From Candidatus Yonathbacteria bacterium RIFCSPLOWO2_01_FULL_43_27 (lineage in GTDB: Bacteria > Patescibacteriota > Minisyncoccia > Phycocordibacterales > UBA1550): a stretch of 64,000 bases of DNA. Shown in pieces: positions 1,881-57,651 of the stretch (positions are counted from its first letter, which is position 1; each line of letters begins with the position of its first letter). The stretch lies in NCBI GenBank assembly GCA_001823545.1, contig MHUV01000006.1, positions 27,437 through 91,436 of the forward strand. Reading direction: 5' to 3'. A program made the position numbers and the translations under genes. The notes below the pieces were generated by a model that saw only the letters and a program-made list of their open reading frames with translations, was not told the DNA's origin and did no database searches.

Positions 1881-3530
1881 ATGAAGCAATCCGAAGCCCT
1901 CGCTATCCTCAAAATGGGACATAATGCGTTTATAACAGGCGCCGCAGGAAGTGGTAAGACACACCTCTTGAACGAATACATTCGCTATCTCCGCGAACAC
2001 AATGCACAAATCGGCATCACTGCTTCAACGGGTATTGCGGCGACTCACATGGGAGGCACGACCATTCACGCATGGTCGGGACTTGGTATCAGGGACACGC
2101 TGAGCGCATACGACCTCGAAGCGCTTGAGGAAAAACCGTATCTCTGGAAACGTTTCGAAAATGTGCACGTTCTTATCATTGATGAAATTTCCATGCTTCA
2201 TCATTATCGCTTGGACCTCGTGGATAAAATTGCACGTTCATTCAAAAGAACTGACAAACCGTTTGGCGGTATGCAAACGATTCTCTGTGGTGATTTCTTT
2301 CAGCTTCCCCCTGTATCACGCGCATACGAACGGCCCGCTGAGTTCTGCTATCACGCAGAGGTATGGGATAAGCTTGATCTCAAGATATGCTATCTCGAAG
2401 AACAACATCGTCAAGAAGATGGCGCGTACCTCGACATTCTAAACGCAATTCGTGACAATGCTGTTTCGCCAGAAACTACGCGCATCCTCGCCACGCGCAA
2501 GAATCAAAAACCAGAAAGTATTGCGGAGCCAACAAAACTCTACACCCATAACACTGATGTCGACACAGAAAATATGTGTGAACTTGAAAAAATTCCCGGA
2601 GAAACTTTTGAATACACCATGACATCAAAAGGAAGGGAAAATCTCGTTGCTATTCTCAAAAAAAGCTGTCTGGCACCAGAAAAACTTTGTCTCAAGAAAG
2701 GTGCGCGCGTAATGTTCGTAAAAAATAATTTTGAAGAAAAGTATGCGAATGGCACACTCGGTATTATAGAAGAATGTACCTCGCTCGGCATCAAAGTACG
2801 TCTCGCTAATAAGCGTATTATTGATGTAAAACCAACAAGTTGGCGAATTGACGAGGATGGCAAAGTGAAAGCAGAAATCACCCAATACCCCCTTCGTCTC
2901 GCATGGGCTATCACGATTCACAAAAGCCAAGGCATGAGCCTCGACGCCGCCTTGGTCGACCTCTCGCAATCGTTTGAAAAAGGTATGGGGTACGTCGCGC
3001 TTTCGCGCGTGCGCACACTAGGAGGACTTTCCCTGAAAGGAATGAACTCTAACGCCCTTGAGGTTAATCCTGAAGTTACTCTTTTTGATATACAATTTCG
3101 CGAGGCATCACAAAAGCATACCAAGAACCTTCACGCAAACTCTCCAGAAGAAATTGCGCGTAGTCATCAGGAGCATCTTAGAAAAGTAGCACCGCAAAAG
3201 AACGTGAAAGCAAAAAAAGTAGACACTACCGAGGAAACAATACGTCTCGTACGTGAAGGAAAAATGCTAAAAGAAATTGTCGCAATACGAGCACTTAAAC
3301 TAGGCACTATTTTGGACCATTTAGAAAAAATCAAAGAAAATGACCCCACTGTAGATCTCTCCCCACTCGAAAAAAATATGCCAAAAGCACGACTTCAAAA
3401 AATTATTCAAGCACTCAATAAGAGCGGTATGCATGGTGGCGTGTATTTACTCACCCCCACAAAAGCACTCCTCAGTAAAGATATTTCATTCGAAGAAATC
3501 CGCATCGCACGATTGTTATTAAAAAAATAA
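1881..3530 (+). CDS. Pif1/RecD-family ATP-dependent DNA helicase (AAA_30 P-loop) with C-terminal HTH-like extension
   Basis: Motifs GAAGSGKT, ITASTGIAA, LIIDEISM, GDFFQLPPV, TIHKSQG. Confidence 0.85.
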   Translation: MKQSEALAILKMGHNAFITGAAGSGKTHLLNEYIRYLREHNAQIGITASTGIAATHMGGTTIHAWSGLGIRDTLSAYDLEALEEKPYLWKRFENVHVLIIDEISMLHHYRLDLVDKIARSFKRTDKPFGGMQTILCGDFFQLPPVSRAYERPAEFCYHAEVWDKLDLKICYLEEQHRQEDGAYLDILNAIRDNAVSPETTRILATRKNQKPESIAEPTKLYTHNTDVDTENMCELEKIPGETFEYTMTSKGRENLVAILKKSCLAPEKLCLKKGARVMFVKNNFEEKYANGTLGIIEECTSLGIKVRLANKRIIDVKPTSWRIDEDGKVKAEITQYPLRLAWAITIHKSQGMSLDAALVDLSQSFEKGMGYVALSRVRTLGGLSLKGMNSNALEVNPEVTLFDIQFREASQKHTKNLHANSPEEIARSHQEHLRKVAPQKNVKAKKVDTTEETIRLVREGKMLKEIVAIRALKLGTILDHLEKIKENDPTVDLSPLEKNMPKARLQKIIQALNKSGMHGGVYLLTPTKALLSKDISFEEIRIARLLLKK

Positions 3531-5890: not shown

Positions 5891-6271
5891 TTACAGAGAG
5901 GCCTGAATCTGTGGGACTGGTACCCCTTTTGGATTTGTTCCGTATATGTTATCACCTGCCTGACTGTCCGTAACCAAGAAAATAAGAAGGATAATACTGC
6001 CAACAATAGGAATGAGACCAAGAAGTATCCACCATGCGCTGTGGTTGGTATCGTGAAGTCTACGCACATACACCGCAAGAGAAGGAACGAGCACCGCAAG
6101 GAGATATACAATACCGAGAACCTGAATAAAAGTTGAATCAAGTGCAAAGGAAAGGAAATTGAAACCAAGCATAATGAGGACATTAACGAGCGTGAACATC
6201 CAATACTCTTTTCTGCCAGCCCTTCCATTAAACAAGGCATATTTTTTCAACACCTCAATATAATTATCCAT
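5891..6271 (-). CDS. DUF805-family inner membrane protein
   Basis: FNGRAGRKEYW motif and multiple TM helices, typical of DUF805/YhaH-like proteins. Confidence 0.7.
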   Translation of the reverse strand: MDNYIEVLKKYALFNGRAGRKEYWMFTLVNVLIMLGFNFLSFALDSTFIQVLGIVYLLAVLVPSLAVYVRRLHDTNHSAWWILLGLIPIVGSIILLIFLVTDSQAGDNIYGTNPKGVPVPQIQASL

Positions 6272-6321
6272 ATATGATATATATTTACTCTTATAATACT
6301 AATATAATTAGTATTTCACAC

Positions 6322-6358
6322 CACACAGAAAACACAAGGTTTGACCTTGTGTTTTCTG
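6322..6358 (-). terminator. 16-bp perfect stem-loop downstream of groEL
   Basis: CACAGAAAACACAAGG-TTTGA-CCTTGTGTTTTCTGTG. No clear U-tract. Confidence 0.45.
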
Positions 6359-6383
6359 TGTTCAAAACAGCCATATTGCAAAA

Positions 6384-41466: not shown

Positions 41467-41537
41467 CTGCGGGGCTTGGATTCGAACCAAGGTGACAGCT
41501 TTCAGAGAGCTGCATCCTACCACTAGATGATCCCGCA
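41467..41537 (-). tRNA. tRNA-Gln (anticodon CTG)
   Basis: Manual fold: U1-A72 (typical of bacterial tRNA-Gln), D-stem CATC/GATG, anticodon stem CAGCT/AGCTG with loop CTCTGAA, T-arm CTTGG-TTCGAAT-CCAAG, discriminator G. Confidence 0.7.
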
Positions 41538-41541
41538 ATAT

Positions 41542-42243
41542 CTATTTATAATCTCTAAAACTTAAAACTTCCATCGCCCGATAAACCTCGTCTTTTTTGG
41601 AAATCTGAATTTGATCCTTGCTTTTATGAGGACTGAACCCTAACCTTTTCATTAACTCAAACACGTTATTAAGCATCGAGATATTTCTATTCGCAAAAAG
41701 GAACTTATGGGTATATGTTTGTTCATGGACACAGAAACTTCCCTCCGCTTCATATAAACCACGGAGATACCTTATCATATATTCTCTTTTTTTTAAAATC
41801 CATTCTGGAACAGTGATTATTAGGTCTTTCCGCGCCCCAACAGCAATTCCAATCCTTTTGCTAATTAATTTTTCATAGACACCGATTTTCGTTGAATTAG
41901 TTTGATTGCTTGAGATAATATACGGCTTCTTCTTAAACACCTTCTCTATAATATCCGCGTATCTTTCAATAAAACCAGAATTATTTGAATTTGATATTAA
42001 GCGTAATTCCTCACAACGAGGATACTTGCAAATGTGGCCATCTCCAAGAATAACACCAATAAGTTCTGCAAGATCCCCATTTTTCTTTAGTGGTAAGTAA
42101 TCAGATTTGACCTTCCCAAGAGCTTTCATTTTCTCCCTCCACACTTTAAAGTTATCAATCTTCCTCAACCTCATCGTATCGGAAATTTTCTTTACTGAAA
42201 GATTTGTATCCTTCGTCTTCCCTTTATTCCAATTACGTGGCAT
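41542..42243 (-). CDS. Free-standing double-motif LAGLIDADG homing endonuclease-like protein
   Basis: Two LAGLIDADG-type motifs: ELIGVILGDGHI and YLRGLYEAEGSF. Confidence 0.6.
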   Translation of the reverse strand: MPRNWNKGKTKDTNLSVKKISDTMRLRKIDNFKVWREKMKALGKVKSDYLPLKKNGDLAELIGVILGDGHICKYPRCEELRLISNSNNSGFIERYADIIEKVFKKKPYIISSNQTNSTKIGVYEKLISKRIGIAVGARKDLIITVPEWILKKREYMIRYLRGLYEAEGSFCVHEQTYTHKFLFANRNISMLNNVFELMKRLGFSPHKSKDQIQISKKDEVYRAMEVLSFRDYK

Positions 42244-47659: not shown

Positions 47660-47741
47660 AAATGCAGTATATCCTAATCCCCGACACTTTCATATATGGA
47701 TATTATACGTAAACATATTCACATCCAAAACACCCCCACCC

Positions 47742-47905
47742 CTACTCTTGTGGCAATTCTACAAAAAACGTCGTTCCCTTCCCTGTGGCCGTATCAAACC
47801 ATACTTTACCGCCGTGCGCGTCAACGATTTTTTTGACGCTGAAAAGTCCGTAGCCGGTGGAATGGACGTTTACTTTCGTTCTTCGTAATTCTTTAAATAT
47901 TCCCT
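47742..47905 (-). pseudogene. Truncated duplicate of the 3' end (HATPase_c tail) of the histidine kinase gene at 51128-52669
   Basis: Reverse-strand frame encodes GIFKELRRTKVNVHSTGYGLFSVKKIVDAHGGKVWFDTATGKGTTFFVELPQE*, nearly identical to the kinase C-terminus. It has no start codon; an in-frame TGA lies at 47925-47927. It overlaps the 3' end of the NUDIX gene in another frame. Confidence 0.8.
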
Positions 47906-48420: not shown

Positions 48421-50472
48421 TTATTTGTTTAGACCGAGTTCTTTTGCAAAAAACGAAAGTTTGTATGCTGAACTTTCAACAATTTTTTCTGTTGATTTAC
48501 CGGCCCCATGCCCTGCATCAACCTCAGTTCTTAAAAAGACTTTGTTAATTTTGTTTACCCACTGAGCTAACGCTGTCATCTTGCGCGAATGTAGTGGGTT
48601 GACGCGCGTATCATTTTCTCCCGTAGTAAAAAAATATGCTGGGTATTCTTTCCCTTCTTTCATATTATGATATGGACTCCAAGACAAAATTGCCTTTAGG
48701 CCCGTCTCATCCCGAGGATCGCCGAGTTCCCCCGTCCATCGCACCGCCAACCCAAAAAGATGGAATCGAACAATATCCAAAATACCAACTTCCGCACATA
48801 CTGCCTTAAACAAATCTGGACGCTGGACAGAAACCGCAGTAACCAATGTCCCACCCATACTTCCACCAGAGATACCAAGGTGTTGTGGATTTGTATATTT
48901 CTGAGAAACAAGATATTCCGCAACAGCAATGAAATCATCGAATGAATTTTGCTTAGTCAACCCAGACCCCTCTTCTTGCCATTTTTTACCAAACTCACCA
49001 CCTCCTCGGATATTTGCAATCGCCAAAACACCTCCACGAACTAGCCATGGGGAAAAATTTTTCAAAAAAGATGGGCGAAGCGAACTACCATGTGCGCCAT
49101 ACCCACTTAAGATAAGGGGATTTTTTGAGTTTTTCTCTATATCTTTTTTACGGATCACAAACAGAGGAATTTTTGTGCCGTCTTTTGAAACACACCATTC
49201 CTGAGCAACAATATAATCTTCTGAACGAAGAGAACTTTCAGTAGACCTGTATTCATCATTTCTTTTTGTGTCTGGGTTATATCTGAATACTGTAAATGGA
49301 ACAATAAATGATTTTACGCCATAAAAATACTCTTCATCGTAATATCGCGCATTAATGCTATGTATGGCCGAAGAACTTGGCAATGGAAGTACATTTTCCA
49401 TAACTCCTTCATGGTCATACACACGAACCTCAGAACATACATTTACCAAGTAGTGAGCAAGTATTTTACTCTTTGAGATTGAGATAGAGTCAAGCACGTA
49501 TTCATTCTCAGGAATAAGCTCAATCCACTTTTCAATAGGCGTACTGTCCCACAACTCGAGAGCTACTGACAACACACGCTTTTTATCTGCCTTATAATTA
49601 GTTAGGAGATACACTTTTTCTTGAGAAAACGATATAGAGAATTTAGCCTTCATCTCGCCAAGAAATAAAGATACTGTTTTTTTGGCTGTATGATAAATGT
49701 AAATTCCATTTTCTGTCCACCCACGAGATACTGATATCACGAGATGCTCTCCGTTTGGGGATATCTTCAACGAAATCATATCGTCTAATGGTCTCCCGTG
49801 CCCAAAAACAAGAACGTCGCTCTCCTGTCCTGTCCCCAATGCATGAAAATATACTTTTAAATGCAAGTGTTCCTCATTAGAAGGAACCTCCCCTTGGTAT
49901 GGATGTCTTGTGTAATAAAAACCAGTTTCATCAGGCAACCACGCAATACTAGAATATCTACACCTTTCAAGTCGTTCGGGAAGAACCTCCCCTGTGTTAA
50001 TATTTTTTATATACACGGTCCCCATTTCTGAGCCTTTTGTAGAAAGCTCATAGGCAACAAATGACGACGAAACTGATTTCGTCCATTGAGAAAGCGTCAC
50101 TGTCCCATCTTGACTCAATTCATTTGGATTTACAACACAAACAGATTCCCCGTTTACGCCTTCTTTCATATAAAGAGCAAACTGTTGCTCACTTTGTTTT
50201 TTTTCTTGATAAAAATGTTTCCCTTGTCCAGGGACAGGTACAGAAAAAACTGTTTCTAAAAAAGATGATGATAATTCTTTTTGAAAAAAACCAAAAAAAT
50301 CACCACGAAGTCCTTTCTCTACGTATTCATTCTGTAGATTAATCCATTTTTTTACTTCTGGATTTTCTCCGTCTTCCAGCCATCGATATGGGTCAGTGAT
50401 AGGTGTGTTCAAAACCACCTCGTTAATTTCATCGCGTTTTGTATCAAAATTTTTCATAAGTATTATTACCAA
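48421..50472 (-). CDS. Prolyl oligopeptidase-family serine peptidase (S9)
   Basis: N-terminal beta-propeller region, then a C-terminal alpha/beta-hydrolase domain with nucleophile elbow GISGGSMGG. Confidence 0.85.
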   Translation of the reverse strand: MVIILMKNFDTKRDEINEVVLNTPITDPYRWLEDGENPEVKKWINLQNEYVEKGLRGDFFGFFQKELSSSFLETVFSVPVPGQGKHFYQEKKQSEQQFALYMKEGVNGESVCVVNPNELSQDGTVTLSQWTKSVSSSFVAYELSTKGSEMGTVYIKNINTGEVLPERLERCRYSSIAWLPDETGFYYTRHPYQGEVPSNEEHLHLKVYFHALGTGQESDVLVFGHGRPLDDMISLKISPNGEHLVISVSRGWTENGIYIYHTAKKTVSLFLGEMKAKFSISFSQEKVYLLTNYKADKKRVLSVALELWDSTPIEKWIELIPENEYVLDSISISKSKILAHYLVNVCSEVRVYDHEGVMENVLPLPSSSAIHSINARYYDEEYFYGVKSFIVPFTVFRYNPDTKRNDEYRSTESSLRSEDYIVAQEWCVSKDGTKIPLFVIRKKDIEKNSKNPLILSGYGAHGSSLRPSFLKNFSPWLVRGGVLAIANIRGGGEFGKKWQEEGSGLTKQNSFDDFIAVAEYLVSQKYTNPQHLGISGGSMGGTLVTAVSVQRPDLFKAVCAEVGILDIVRFHLFGLAVRWTGELGDPRDETGLKAILSWSPYHNMKEGKEYPAYFFTTGENDTRVNPLHSRKMTALAQWVNKINKVFLRTEVDAGHGAGKSTEKIVESSAYKLSFFAKELGLNK

Positions 50473-50547
50473 TACATCATCTTTTTTATTCTATTATATA
50501 TTACCAAATACAAGATATTCTGCACTTATTGAAGGATTAGCCCCTCA

Positions 50548-50591
50548 TTTTAAATTTAAACCCCTCTTGTTGCGTTACGCAACAAGAGGGG
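50548..50591 (-). terminator. Intrinsic terminator of the small-peptide operon
   Basis: CCCCTCTTGTTGCG-TTA-CGCAACAAGAGGGG 14-bp stem. On the minus strand it is followed by a U/A-rich tract (UUUAAAUUUAAAAU). Confidence 0.6.
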
Positions 50592-50636
50592 TTACTCTCC
50601 ATATTCACCATCTTGTGGAGGGGAAAAGAGAGGCCT

Positions 50637-50702
50637 TTACTTGCACGGAGGGTCATTGCTACCGGCGCCATGATTCCCGCCACAGTTTCCGCAGTCTGAC
50701 AT
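50637..50702 (-). CDS. Cys-rich micro-protein, 21 aa (MSDCGNCGGNHGAGSNDPPCK)
   Basis: Perfect SD AAAGGAGGTG 7 nt upstream of the ATG. Paralogous N-terminus with the upstream 22-aa peptide. Below the ORF-track length cut-off. Confidence 0.5.
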   Translation of the reverse strand: MSDCGNCGGNHGAGSNDPPCK

Positions 50703-50750
50703 ACCAATCACCTCCTTTCTGTGTGTAGTTTTTACTACTGAGAAAGAGTT

Positions 50751-50819
50751 CTACCCGTTGCAATCGCCGTCGCAAGGAGCACCTCCCGCCTCACAGTTAC
50801 CACCGCAGTTGTCACTCAT
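50751..50819 (-). CDS. Cys-rich micro-protein, 22 aa (MSDNCGGNCEAGGAPCDGDCNG)
   Basis: SD AAAGGAGGTGA 6 nt upstream of the ATG. C-x3-C-x6-C-x3-C spacing. Confidence 0.5.
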   Translation of the reverse strand: MSDNCGGNCEAGGAPCDGDCNG

Positions 50820-50857
50820 GGCACTCACCTCCTTTGTTTGAGACGTATGGAAAGCTT

Positions 50858-50962
50858 CTACTTCCAAGGTTCTATAAAAGACGGGTTTTCTCCTCGAGGA
50901 ACGCTGAGTGTGGGACCAGTGATACTAAAACTGCACAAAAACTCTTCACTTTTGTCGATCAT
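50858..50962 (-). CDS. Small ORF, 34 aa (MIDKSEEFLCSFSITGPTLSVPRGENPSFIEPWK), first cistron of the micro-operon
   Basis: SD AAAGGAGGAGG upstream. Located about 95 nt downstream of a consensus promoter. Confidence 0.4.
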   Translation of the reverse strand: MIDKSEEFLCSFSITGPTLSVPRGENPSFIEPWK

Positions 50963-51064
50963 CTGATCCTCCTCCTTTTACCGAGGCACGATTATTATAT
51001 AACTCCTTTATATAAAAAACAGGGAAGGTGTCCTCTTGTGAAGCTAAATTAACTATCTAGGTGT

Positions 51065-51093
51065 ATCATACCCCCCCGCCACCTTTTTGTCAA
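51065..51093 (-). promoter_or_regulatory. Sigma70-type promoter TTGACA-N17-TATGAT driving the small-peptide operon
   Basis: On the minus strand, TTGACA (51093-51088), a 17-nt spacer, and TATGAT (51070-51065). It lies immediately downstream of the histidine-kinase stop. Confidence 0.55.
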
Positions 51094-51127
51094 GAGCAGT
51101 AATTTTCAATTGAACCTGATTCTCCCC

Positions 51128-52669
51128 CTACCCCCTCGGCATCTCCACCCAAAACGTCGTTCCCTTCCCTGTTGCGGTATCAAACCATACCTTGCCACCG
51201 TGTGCGTCGACGATCTTTTTGACACTAAAAAGGCCGTAGCCGGTAGAGTGGACATTTACTTTGAGTGAATCTTTGCCGTGACCGCCCTCCTTAAAAAGGT
51301 TTGGTTTATCTTCATCACTGATACCAATGCCAGTGTCTTTAACAGAAAAGAGAATAGCGTTCCCTTTTTTCGACAATCCTACCGTAACCCCGCCTGCGAG
51401 GGTGTAGTTAACAGCATTCTCAACGAGATTTTTTAGAACGTGGGTAACGAGCTGGACGCGGTCACCGACAAATGTATAATCTCCCTCTTCAGAAATATTC
51501 GTCGTAAGTGAAAGCCCTTTTGTTTTTGCTTCCGACTCGACATCGTGCACCACCTCAAGCACCGCTTCTTTAAAATCAAATGGTTCTGGCTTTAACACAA
51601 GATCTTGACCAGATTCAAGGATCACAATAACCGAGCGAATAAGTTTCTTGGTATCGTCGTGGGCTTGCTCGAGGAATGGGCGCGCCTGATCTGAGACTGC
51701 GCCAAAACTACCGTCGAGAAGCATGCCGAACATATCTTTATCTTTCCCAAGCACATTTTTAATATCGTGACTCATAATACGATTGACACTCTTGAGCCTC
51801 CCTGCCAACTGCTCGATCTCCTCACGCAACGCAACTTCCTTTTTGACGCTTTTAATGAGGAAAAGGCCTATGAAAATTACAAAAACAAACGTCACCGCAC
51901 CAAGAATTTTCCCATTGAGCGTTTCCGCCATCACCGCCTGCGCAATAACCGCTGTCCAAATCGCAAAGGTCATCAATTCTGCAATAATAACTTTAATATT
52001 GAAAAGATGATGCTTAATAATAGCAAACGCAATAGACAATACTAGAATTAAAGTAAAAACAGGGCCTAACCAAGTATATTGAAATATGCCTATGTAAGGA
52101 AGTACGAGATCAGTAATAGTTGCAAAAAAAGAAGAGAGTAAGGAACCTAAAAAAATATATTTTAATTGTGTTTTTTGTAAAACATCTTTTGTTTTTCTGT
52201 ATTGTAAAAAAAGTGCCAAGTATCCTAATACAAATAAAAATGTTATGTATTCACCATAAAAAATATATCCTTGCTTTATTTCATATGCTTGTAAAAAAGT
52301 ATCACCAATTATTAACTTTGTAGAAAAAAGAAAATAAACAATAACAAGAAATGTAATCATTGGTAGGGCTAGTACATACTTCTTCTTTATTAATACTGAA
52401 GGAAAATTTAACGAAAAATATAGAAAAAATAGAGCAATAAAAGCTGCCGCTGTATGTGTCAAAGTTAGCCAGATCTCTGGGGAGAGGAATTTAAAGCCTG
52501 AAGAGAAAAAACCCAAAATTGCGATACTCCACAAAACCACACCAAAAGATATTGAGCCAAAAAAAATGTTGATTTTATCCTTTGGATCTTGCAATAAAAC
52601 GACTAAACTTAGAATTAAGTTGATTAGAATGACAACCGAAAAAATATATGGAAGAAAATTAAGCATCAC
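51128..52669 (-). CDS. Multi-TM (7TM-receptor-like) sensor histidine kinase; no cognate response regulator nearby
   Basis: About 8-9 N-terminal TM helices with no large extracellular domain, H-box MSHDIKNVLG, C-terminal HATPase_c (GIGISDE...GGHG...STGYGLFSVKKIVDAHGGKVW). 1-nt overlap with the upstream gene. Confidence 0.8.
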   Translation of the reverse strand: MMLNFLPYIFSVVILINLILSLVVLLQDPKDKINIFFGSISFGVVLWSIAILGFFSSGFKFLSPEIWLTLTHTAAAFIALFFLYFSLNFPSVLIKKKYVLALPMITFLVIVYFLFSTKLIIGDTFLQAYEIKQGYIFYGEYITFLFVLGYLALFLQYRKTKDVLQKTQLKYIFLGSLLSSFFATITDLVLPYIGIFQYTWLGPVFTLILVLSIAFAIIKHHLFNIKVIIAELMTFAIWTAVIAQAVMAETLNGKILGAVTFVFVIFIGLFLIKSVKKEVALREEIEQLAGRLKSVNRIMSHDIKNVLGKDKDMFGMLLDGSFGAVSDQARPFLEQAHDDTKKLIRSVIVILESGQDLVLKPEPFDFKEAVLEVVHDVESEAKTKGLSLTTNISEEGDYTFVGDRVQLVTHVLKNLVENAVNYTLAGGVTVGLSKKGNAILFSVKDTGIGISDEDKPNLFKEGGHGKDSLKVNVHSTGYGLFSVKKIVDAHGGKVWFDTATGKGTTFWVEMPRG

Positions 52670-53418
52670 TAAATTATTCCTAACATTTTAAGAAATCCAT
52701 TATATAAATTACTCCTCAAAACATACTTCGTGTCTTCTGCTTTTTGAAACATGCGAGAATTATGAAGCACATCATCAATATATTTTCCAATTTCATCAGT
52801 AATAAAATATATAGGAATAACCTTATCGCCTTCTTGGTTAAAATAATTATACAACACTCCTTCTTGTTGATAAATCTGTCTATAATTATCTATTGTATGA
52901 ACAGGTATCTTTAATTTTTTTAATTTACTATCTAGTTTTTCTTTAATAAATGCATACCCTCCACTAATTCCACTATTTAAACCAAAATCAGCTAGACATT
53001 TTATCATGAAAAGCATGACAATATTTCTGGGCAAATATTTATTGTTATCATTTCGGGCAACTATTAAGCGTCCTATTTCAGCTCTATTTTCTCTCGAGAT
53101 ACTCTTAATGTCCGATGGCTCTTCAAAAGAAAAACATTCTTTCTCTGTAGGAAGGAATTGATCTTTTATTAATCTGACAGTCCCAATAATTTGTTCGTCA
53201 ACTTTTGCAATGAAATAATCACACTTGCCACTCAGATCATAGTCATCTATATCTTGTTGTGATGGAAACAATTTTGGATCTATATAGCCCCTCGATGTAT
53301 ATATATTGTATCTTAAGCGATACATTTCTTGCAATTCTTTTTCACAGTTTGGTACTCCAAAATAAATAGTTTTATTTTGCTTATTATCCTCGACACTCAA
53401 TTCGTACATTATTTTCAT
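52669..53418 (-). CDS. GNAT-fold N-acyltransferase of the autoinducer-synthase superfamily (LuxI/FeeM-like N-acyl amino acid synthase family)
   Basis: MYRLRYNIYTSRGYID...DDYD...IIGTVRLI...AEIGRLIV matches the R.RY.VF...GW / E.SRL pattern of N-acyl amino acid synthases (Acetyltransf_5). Confidence 0.5.
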   Translation of the reverse strand: MKIMYELSVEDNKQNKTIYFGVPNCEKELQEMYRLRYNIYTSRGYIDPKLFPSQQDIDDYDLSGKCDYFIAKVDEQIIGTVRLIKDQFLPTEKECFSFEEPSDIKSISRENRAEIGRLIVARNDNNKYLPRNIVMLFMIKCLADFGLNSGISGGYAFIKEKLDSKLKKLKIPVHTIDNYRQIYQQEGVLYNYFNQEGDKVIPIYFITDEIGKYIDDVLHNSRMFQKAEDTKYVLRSNLYNGFLKMLGII

Positions 53419-56976: not shown

Positions 56977-57651
56977 ATGCCACGCATTACCCGTACCGAC
57001 ATCGGTAATCATTGCTACCATGTCATCAATCGCGCCAACGCTCGACTCCCCATTTTCTTTGCAGAACAGGACTACCTTTTATTTGAGGAAGTTTTGGAAG
57101 AAGCACAAAAGAAGTTTTCTATGAGGATCCTTGCGTATTGTCTTATGCCAAATCATTTCCACCTAGTACTCTATCCCATAAATGACGGCGATATGGGGAA
57201 GTTTATGCAATGGCTCACACTCACTCATACCCAGCGCTGGCACCAAGCGAACAATACAAAAGGAAGCGGACACCTCTATCAAGGGAGATACAAATCTTTT
57301 TTAATACAAGACGACAAACACCTTCTTTCCGTCATCCGCTATGTAGAGCGAAATTCGTTGCGTGCAAAATTAGTTAAAAAAGCAGAGAATTGGGGTTTCT
57401 GCAGTTTGGCGCGACGTCTTTCAGAGCACCCAGCAAAAAAGAAACTTTTGTCAGCGTGGCCGATACTTGAGCCCGAAGACTATCTTTCATTTGTTAATAT
57501 ACCTCAAACAAGAGAAGAAGAAGAACTCATCAGGGGGTCTGTTGTAAAAGGGAAGCCATTTGGCGCAGATGCATGGGCTATGAAAATGATCAAGAAGTTT
57601 GGGCTGGAAACTACTGTCCGACCCACAGGGAGACCCAAAAAGGGTACCTGA
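56977..57651 (+). mobile_element. IS200/IS605-family Y1 (HUH) transposase, RAYT-like
   Basis: HUH motif PNHFHLVL and the catalytic-Tyr motif RYVERNSLRAKLV (compare Y.ERNPVRAGLV of REP-associated tyrosine transposases). Confidence 0.7.

Follow-up and report, generated by a model that had tools for sequence, protein, structure and literature searches.

We examined a small-gene unit on the minus strand of a 64,000-nucleotide (nt) stretch of contig MHUV01000006.1 from Candidatus Yonathbacteria bacterium RIFCSPLOWO2_01_FULL_43_27 (the whole stretch is called the window below), where an earlier reading of the letters, referred to here as the original prediction, had described an independent micro-operon of three very short open reading frames (ORFs). 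The unit is preceded by a histidine kinase gene and followed by a gene for a prolyl oligopeptidase (POP). Its promoter, its three ORFs and their ribosome-binding sites (RBSs) at ideal spacing were all found where they had been predicted, and the features are as follows.

51065-51093, minus strand: sigma-70-type promoter, TTGACA-17-TATGAT; relatives share its -35 box and the initial part of the leader
50858-50962, minus strand: ORF1, 34 amino acids (aa), MIDKSEEFLCSFSITGPTLSVPRGENPSFIEPWK; ATG start; RBS AAAGGAGGAGG at 50968-50978
50751-50819, minus strand: ORF2, 22 aa, MSDNCGGNCEAGGAPCDGDCNG; ATG start; Cys spacing CX3CX6CX3C; RBS AAAGGAGGTGA at 50825-50835
50637-50702, minus strand: ORF3, 21 aa, MSDCGNCGGNHGAGSNDPPCK; ATG start; conserved microprotein gene; RBS AAAGGAGGTGA at 50708-50718
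50595-50632, minus strand: small hairpin CCUCUC...GAGAGG in the 3′ untranslated region (UTR), between the ORF3 stop and the terminator
50550-50593, minus strand: intrinsic terminator; its hairpin (50559-50593) has a 16-bp G+C-rich stem and a 3-nt loop and is followed by UUUAAAUUU

The promoter agrees with the consensus at 11 of 12 positions and, of the sigma-70-like matches in the 5 kb scanned, is the top one. The leader has ~96 nt, and the distance from RBS to ATG is 6-7 nt at each of the three ORFs. Strong Shine-Dalgarno sites are rare in the 64 kb: AAAGGAGG occurs five times on the minus strand, three of these in the 330 nt of the three-ORF unit, AAAGGAGGTG occurs twice on the same strand, both times at the unit, and AAGGAGG at start-codon spacing is found at just two long genes. 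Because of this rarity the sites of the unit stand above background, which bears out the claim that three such matches were unlikely by chance. The predicted GC stem terminator is present as well, and the 96-nt 3′ UTR of ORF3 has a folding energy of -39.2 kcal/mol (z = -6.1 against shuffles), although a simple terminator scan did not list the 16-bp hairpin. With promoter, RBSs and terminator in place, the description of an independent and strongly signalled small-gene unit holds.

For comparison we used the contigs with the closest POP homologues, plus one metagenome pattern scan. ORF3 orthologues were found in six further lineages (L001, L005, L006, L007, L127 and L128) whose POPs are 62-85% identical to the POP of the window, and in all six the peptide gene is directly upstream of POP and is followed by the same hairpin. 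The peptides are listed below.

L001 and L005: MSDCGNCGGNHGAGSNDPPCK, identical to ORF3 of the window
L006: MSDCGHCGGNHGAGSNDPPCK
L007: MKKLTMGDCGNCGGNHGQGSNDPPCK
L127: MKMGDCGNCGGNHGQGSNDPPCK
L128: MKKLTMGDCGNCGGNHGAGSNDPPCK

Across the window and these six orthologues, the 19-residue core DCG(N/H)CGGNHG(A/Q)GSNDPPCK is invariant at 17 of 19 residues, leaving two variable positions. The conserved part starts 2-7 residues past the start codon, after a variable N-terminus of that length, and reaches the stop; as it spans nearly the whole peptide, the original prediction was right that a leader region is lacking. The -35 box, RBS and terminator are retained in relatives along with ORF3. TTGACA is kept in L001, L005, L127 and L128 and reads CTGACA in L007, while every relative has the terminator stem, in which the alignment shows compensatory changes near the loop. 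The small 3′ UTR hairpin is restricted to the clade of the window, L001, L005 and L006, and is absent or deleted in L007 and L128.

Purifying selection in relatives had been proposed as a check on the ORFs, and for ORF3 it was found. Between the window and L001, 13 of the 63 coding positions differ, all of them third-position and all synonymous (p ~1.7e-9, because just 21% of random single changes would be synonymous). The other pairs have synonymous to nonsynonymous codon differences from 13:0 to 7:3, and the closest pair, L005 and L006, has 1:1. A multiple alignment shows three-base periodicity within ORF3 and much lower conservation in the leader. The core is identical in the window and L128 while their POPs are 62% identical, meaning the peptide is more constrained than POP. 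Judged from these alignments, ORF3 truly codes for protein and is under very strong purifying selection, and the synonymous excess, the periodicity and the intact frame rule out both a chance ORF and a non-coding reading.

The original prediction had also named a structured non-coding RNA as an alternative. Searches with the window and its relatives at gathering and permissive thresholds gave no relevant Rfam family, which is why the known non-coding RNA and riboswitch readings of the unit were dropped. The full transcript is not unusually structured either (z = -1.75), and the coding assignment of ORF3 stands. In the clade that is more distant, the peptide gene has a 5′ UTR that folds as a long hairpin (L007 272-345, L127 88-158 and L128 123-193), with six pairs that show compensatory changes among the three sequences and no Rfam match; its base pairs with an A-rich stretch just before the RBS.

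A 21-residue product that is more tightly conserved than the neighbouring 678-aa enzyme and has among the strongest expression signals of the 64 kb points to an important function that annotation has not captured. ORF3 was uncalled by gene callers in all seven assemblies examined. Proteins below 30 aa are systematically missed by such programs, and the genomes of Patescibacteria are tiny and hold many genes without an assigned function.

A short ORF followed by a terminator, directly upstream of a gene that has no Shine-Dalgarno site, is the layout of a cis-acting leader peptide, in which stalling at Asp-Pro-Pro or at the Cys codons would modulate the terminator and with it read-through into POP. 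DPP is an EF-P-dependent stalling motif and is contained in ORF3, and the second small hairpin between the ORF3 stop and the terminator could be seen in the same light. We consider this role very improbable, given a constraint that covers the peptide in full and the lack of a conserved antiterminator. The entire 19-residue sequence has been kept through many synonymous changes, rather than a few codons, and no credible antiterminator to set against the 16-bp stem and no conserved alternative pairing were found. Nor do L007 and L128 have the small upstream hairpin, and translation signals this strong would be needless for a sensor ORF. The POP gene itself carries a conserved TG-n-TAATAA/TAATAT box 5-7 nt before its ATG (in the window at 50458-50480, TGgTAATAA, 5 nt; also in L001, L005, L006, L007 and L128). 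Since this -10-like box sits just before the ATG and there is no Shine-Dalgarno site, POP is probably transcribed from a promoter of its own into a leaderless mRNA, and independent transcription of this kind also speaks against control through ORF3.

The reading we favour, and hold only tentatively, is that ORF3 encodes a highly expressed cytoplasmic microprotein in which a CxxCG knuckle, His11 and Cys20 would together hold one metal. The Gly-rich peptide would fold around a single metal ion, most likely Zn(II), with a rubredoxin/zinc-ribbon-type CxxCG knuckle (Cys4 and Cys7), His11 and the penultimate Cys20 as putative ligands. With three Cys and one His in ORF3, and four Cys in ORF2, there are ligands for one mononuclear site only. 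The chain is rich in Gly, its C-terminal Asp-Pro-Pro-Cys-Lys is invariant, and it has no signal sequence, hydrophobic stretch or leader/core layout. Such a product may work on its own as a microprotein for metal binding or thiol redox chemistry, serving as chaperone or buffer or else as a module that binds a partner, and would not be a precursor for modification. Its gene is a unit of its own with promoter, near-perfect RBS and intrinsic terminator, to which in this strain an insert of ~345 nt adds ORF2, plausibly a diverged tandem copy with four Cys, and the unrelated ORF1. If ORF3 does bind metal, few natural proteins with a single metal site would be as small, and it would lend itself to use as a model peptide.

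The local motif has a close match in a much larger protein. The ORF3 core (50640-50699) reads DCGNCGGNHG and is identical at nine of ten residues to DCGACGGNHG of DabA, the beta-carbonic-anhydrase-like subunit of DAB inorganic carbon pumps. We met this match by scanning 185,579 species genomes with the core pattern D-C-G-x-C-G-G-N-H-G, which returned at least 119 loci, all of them DabA among the matches listed. These loci (L008-L126, from many phyla among the matches listed) encode proteins of 750-1100 aa with ...GHGS..NNPYESALDCGACGGNHG... that belong to DabA (PF10070). A pattern limited to Asn or His at position x would set DabA aside, as would TGYGGNMAYTGYGGNGGNAAYCAYGG, from which DabA's GCN (Ala) codon is omitted. 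In DabA2, Cys351, His524 and Cys539 hold the catalytic zinc according to cryo-electron microscopy (PMC13144422), and alignment to PDB 9rd0 places Cys539 as the first Cys of the DabA motif (D538-C539-G-A-C542). DabA is an enzyme subunit of 750-1100 aa, and ORF3 shares the 10-residue motif, nothing else of the domain and no Pfam match. We doubt that a nine-in-ten agreement with a conserved family motif arises by chance; the most plausible cause is that both have the same geometry of a metal-binding knuckle at this spot, reached by convergence and not by descent. Some DabAs continue with GSNA...NDPxVR, a loose likeness to GSNDPPCK of ORF3.

No Pfam or NCBIfam match was obtained for ORF1, ORF2, ORF3 or the L007 form, even at E <= 10, and a PDB search with the peptides gave no match. 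CxxCG is the classical knuckle of zinc-finger microproteins, and 49 C(P)XCG zinc-finger microproteins are predicted in Haloferax volcanii (PMC11241148). Like them, ORF3 is very small, stand-alone, putatively cytoplasmic and built on CxxCG, and such proteins are often without a function on paper and missed by annotation. Unlike the archaeal proteins, which have two motifs (PMC11241148), ORF3 is bacterial and has one CxxCG (C4-G-N-C7-G) together with His11 and the distant Cys20, and its zinc binding is putative. The CCHC zinc knuckle (CX2CX4HX4C) has the same order of ligands as ORF3, where the spacing is CX2CX3HX8C and no Pfam match is found. With the metallothioneins SmtA/BmtA and MymT, ORF3 has in common that it is small, rich in Cys and Gly and free of a signal peptide, and that metal buffering is possible. 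Those proteins, however, have ~50-56 aa, at least 9 Cys/His and multi-metal clusters, compared to three Cys and one His in ORF3, and their family profiles do not match it. The metallothionein-like resemblance that had been put forward found no backing in the family searches, and a single CxxCG-His-Cys site in place of a cluster is our best guess.

Several points weigh against metal binding by ORF3. The core is almost totally invariant, so the proposed ligands are not singled out by invariance. Several archaeal C(P)XCG proteins bind no zinc, and ORF3 has a single CxxCG (PMC11241148). A single-sequence AlphaFold model of ORF3 was uninformative, with a predicted local distance difference test (pLDDT) score of 58. 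In the solved DabA2 structure CAGQAG takes the place of the CGGNHG of many DabAs and ORF3 (PDB 9rd0), so GGNHG is not universal, and the other zinc ligands of DabA (Cys351 and His524) are far off in sequence, elsewhere in the protein. The distribution of ORF3 is under-sampled, as the genome scan gave at least 119 loci, all DabA among the matches listed, which would mask any copies in Patescibacteria. Finally, the constant adjacency to POP and a Pro-Pro-Cys-Lys end that a prolyl peptidase could cleave fit a POP-linked role equally well.

This last point leads to the neighbourhood of ORF3, for which three further features are needed.

48421-50457, minus strand: prolyl oligopeptidase (POP, S9), 678 aa (Pfam Peptidase_S9_N 8.7e-77 and Peptidase_S9 1.3e-52)
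51128-52669: histidine kinase, 513 aa, upstream of the small-ORF unit
47739-47876, minus strand: 138-nt remnant of the 3′ end of the histidine kinase gene, 83% identical to 51125-51262

ORF3, and with it the Pro-containing ORF1 and ORF2, might be a substrate of POP or a leaderless peptide of signalling type or resembling the peptides that are made on ribosomes and modified after translation (RiPPs), which would be cut after Pro or otherwise matured, making peptide and POP a cassette. POP enzymes act on peptides shorter than ~30 aa, and ORF3 lies below that limit, ends in an invariant DPP-CK and is directly upstream of POP in seven of seven lineages. Adjacency among genomes this close may, on the other hand, be mere inherited gene order, and POPs of ~50% identity that lack the peptide are widespread in Paceibacteria. 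These homologues come from Paceibacteria-type Patescibacteria, with source names that include Campbellbacteria, Yonathbacteria and Nomurabacteria, and no ORF3 was found within 10 kb of those examined, nor within 10 kb of one POP of 70% identity (L002), where a toxin gene stands in the place of ORF3. The two genes are also kept apart by a strong terminator and by what appears to be a promoter for POP alone.

There are precedents for peptides handled by S9 peptidases, as FlaP, OphP, MpgP and WprP2 are RiPP proteases of this kind (PMC12957482) and the fungal POPB processes leaderless MSDIN peptides (PMC12912989). As in the MSDIN/POPB, FlaP and WprP2 systems, a short peptide gene here stands beside an S9 POP, begins with MSD and has Pro near its end. 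Unlike them, ORF3 has neither a core flanked by Pro nor a recognition sequence in a follower, no modifying enzyme is found among the genes annotated around the unit, the peptide gene and POP have a terminator between them, and the POP is a broadly conserved Paceibacteria enzyme. An ABC-2 transporter three genes downstream would suit a peptide product. So would an anSME/DynA-like radical S-adenosylmethionine (SAM)/SPASM gene that is present in two relatives (L001 1044-2307 and L005 3-1100, minus strand in both, copies 65% identical), 0.7-1.2 kb from the peptide and on the opposite strand, and which resembles a peptide maturase. No homologue of the L001 enzyme occurs in the 64-kb window, though, and no maturase is found among the genes annotated around the unit; the L001 enzyme also has its own candidate substrate of 46 aa next to it. 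The PqqA and MftA precursors (~20-30 aa) offer a similar comparison: ORF3 is extremely conserved as well and two relatives have a radical SAM/SPASM enzyme close by, but the motifs of PqqA and MftA are absent from ORF3, a RiPP recognition-element protein is lacking, the window has no homologue of the L001 radical SAM, and that enzyme is paired with the other, 46-aa ORF. ORF3 has no leader-core layout and matches no NCBIfam precursor model. The radical-SAM/RiPP-like resemblance in the original prediction found no backing as a family match, and we judge a POP-linked peptide unlikely overall, if worth keeping in view. Were it correct, ORF3 and POP would bring to light a minimal peptide pathway of a new kind, in symbiotic bacteria that are uncultured. 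As a separate observation, the 46-aa ORF that adjoins the L001 radical SAM gene ends in ...GKPGPWDQGHWANRK, and the pair is a possible cyclophane-type RiPP cluster beside an S9 peptidase.

The surroundings of the peptide gene bear on the same question. The two copies of the kinase 3′ end (47739-47876 and 51125-51262) bracket the small ORFs, POP and a NUDIX hydrolase gene, and L001 has three kinase remnants (1-100, 3260-3366 and 6243-6365) that separate gene blocks, an arrangement that suggests cassette-like recombination at the kinase 3′ end. Window and L001 are 83% identical over the peptide-POP-NUDIX block and 96% over ABC-FtsX-PyrG, from which it follows that the block has had a history apart from its surroundings and travels as a whole. 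Both the bracketing repeats and this separate divergence can be counted in favour of a POP-linked peptide. The furthest extension of that idea is that peptide, POP and NUDIX would make up a functional cassette exchanged horizontally, with the leaderless 19-residue Cys/His peptide as a dedicated substrate or partner of the cytoplasmic POP, and we give this little credence. If true, the peptide might be a ribosomal peptide product of a new, minimal sort, it might serve ultra-small Patescibacteria without glutathione-type pathways as a gene-encoded metallophore or low-molecular-weight thiol, or it might mimic the DabA zinc loop of a host bacterium. A functional link between ORF3 and the histidine kinase was rejected because the peptide stays identical while the kinase is truncated in L005 and a remnant in L001.

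ORF3 is confined to a narrow Paceibacteria-like clade of Patescibacteria as far as the searches reach; outside the seven lineages they gave nothing, and the genome scan, with DabA in all the matches listed, does not establish absence there. The metagenome scan with the C-terminal pattern NHGxGxNDPPC returned a single locus, L127. No ORF3-related sequence was seen in viral contigs or, by tblastn, in phage genomes, and a look-up by POP gave no close relative in genome contigs. Literature searches on the ORF3 motif and on Cys-rich small proteins of Patescibacteria returned nothing. ORF3 represents a new and narrowly distributed family of very small proteins within a general kind that is already known, the microproteins with Cys; it is smaller than those described, and its ligand layout is unusual.

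The three-ORF arrangement itself is not conserved. In L001, L005, L007, L127 and L128, which are all the relatives with visible upstream DNA, the promoter is followed by a leader of 50-110 nt and then by ORF3 alone. ORF1 and ORF2 lie on the ~345-nt insert between promoter and ORF3, which is found in this strain only, and pieces of the ancestral leader (TAGATAGTAAACTA...) are recognisable at both of its sides, a pattern compatible with an origin by tandem duplication. The sole other copy is in L003, from the same strain, which is otherwise identical and has a scaffold gap (N-run 345-354) at the ORF2/ORF3 junction. The L004 and L006 contigs start exactly at the ORF3 RBS, and together with the L003 N-run this makes three independent assemblies that break there. 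Such breaks at the right edge of the insert may hint at a presence/absence polymorphism in natural populations. Other strains with the insert were sought via the kinase gene, and the contigs found end 33-54 nt past the kinase.

The relatives lack the insert and L003 is the same strain, and for these reasons translation signals are the one line of evidence that ORF1 and ORF2 are coding. Of the three ORFs predicted to be genes, then, ORF3 is borne out and ORF1 and ORF2, on a strain-specific insert, gain no comparative support. The companion claim of two Cys-rich paralogs fared better in part. ORF2 and ORF3 share MSD, NCGGN, the RBS and the spacer, and their similarity was matched by 121 of 5000 composition-preserving shuffles (p = 0.024); ORF2 is plausibly a diverged tandem copy, and a Cys-rich paralogue, of ORF3, with moderate support from this comparison. 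The Cys motifs of ORF2 are CGGNC and CDGDC (CX3C). The two ORFs are in the same frame with UAG and 16 sense codons between them (50703-50753), and read-through would give a 60-aa fusion.

ORF1 proved unrelated to ORF2 and ORF3 in the shuffle comparison. It had no exact match in a gene collection and no small-protein homologue in a search of 1.84 billion representatives. What similarity it has is weak, to repeated Ig-like segments of two proteins of 1400-1500 aa (P0121 and P0122); being weak multi-repeat matches to giant proteins, these hits were not accepted as small-protein homology. ORF1 (…SFSITGPTLSVPRGENPSF…) is weakly like the start of the Ig-like units (…ISVTPPTVTVAKGQNQSL…) of both proteins, and could be a captured fragment of an Ig-like-repeat gene.

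It is quite possible, though we stop short of calling it probable, that ORF1 and ORF2 are non-functional and arose only as a side effect when the ORF3 leader recently underwent a tandem duplication or an insertion, with ORF2 decaying and ORF1 a foreign piece or Ig-like-repeat fragment that has an RBS-like sequence by chance. An insert limited to this strain and absent from the relatives with visible upstream DNA fits this view, as do the assemblies (L003, L004 and L006) that break exactly at its right-hand edge, the similarity of ORF1 to the repeats of giant Ig-like proteins only, and the heavy divergence of ORF2 from an otherwise near-invariant peptide. Against it stand the intact frames, the ATG starts, RBSs that are among the strongest of the 64 kb at optimal spacing, and four regularly spaced Cys kept in ORF2.

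Beyond the unit, the gene order downstream of ORF3 is POP, NUDIX hydrolase, ABC-2 transporter, FtsX and CTP synthase (PyrG), and upstream of the kinase there are genes for a FeeM/autoinducer-synthase-like acyltransferase and a methyltransferase. The acyltransferase gene (52669-53418) abuts the kinase gene, and the pair is also present in L133 (83-2439), where the kinase is 87% identical. The kinase is truncated in L134 as it is in L005, and in L001 just a remnant is left. Further along the window, an IS200-like transposase ORF is located upstream of the locus (56977-57651, plus strand), and downstream of it a LAGLIDADG-domain ORF (41467-42243, minus strand) directly adjoins a tRNA gene.

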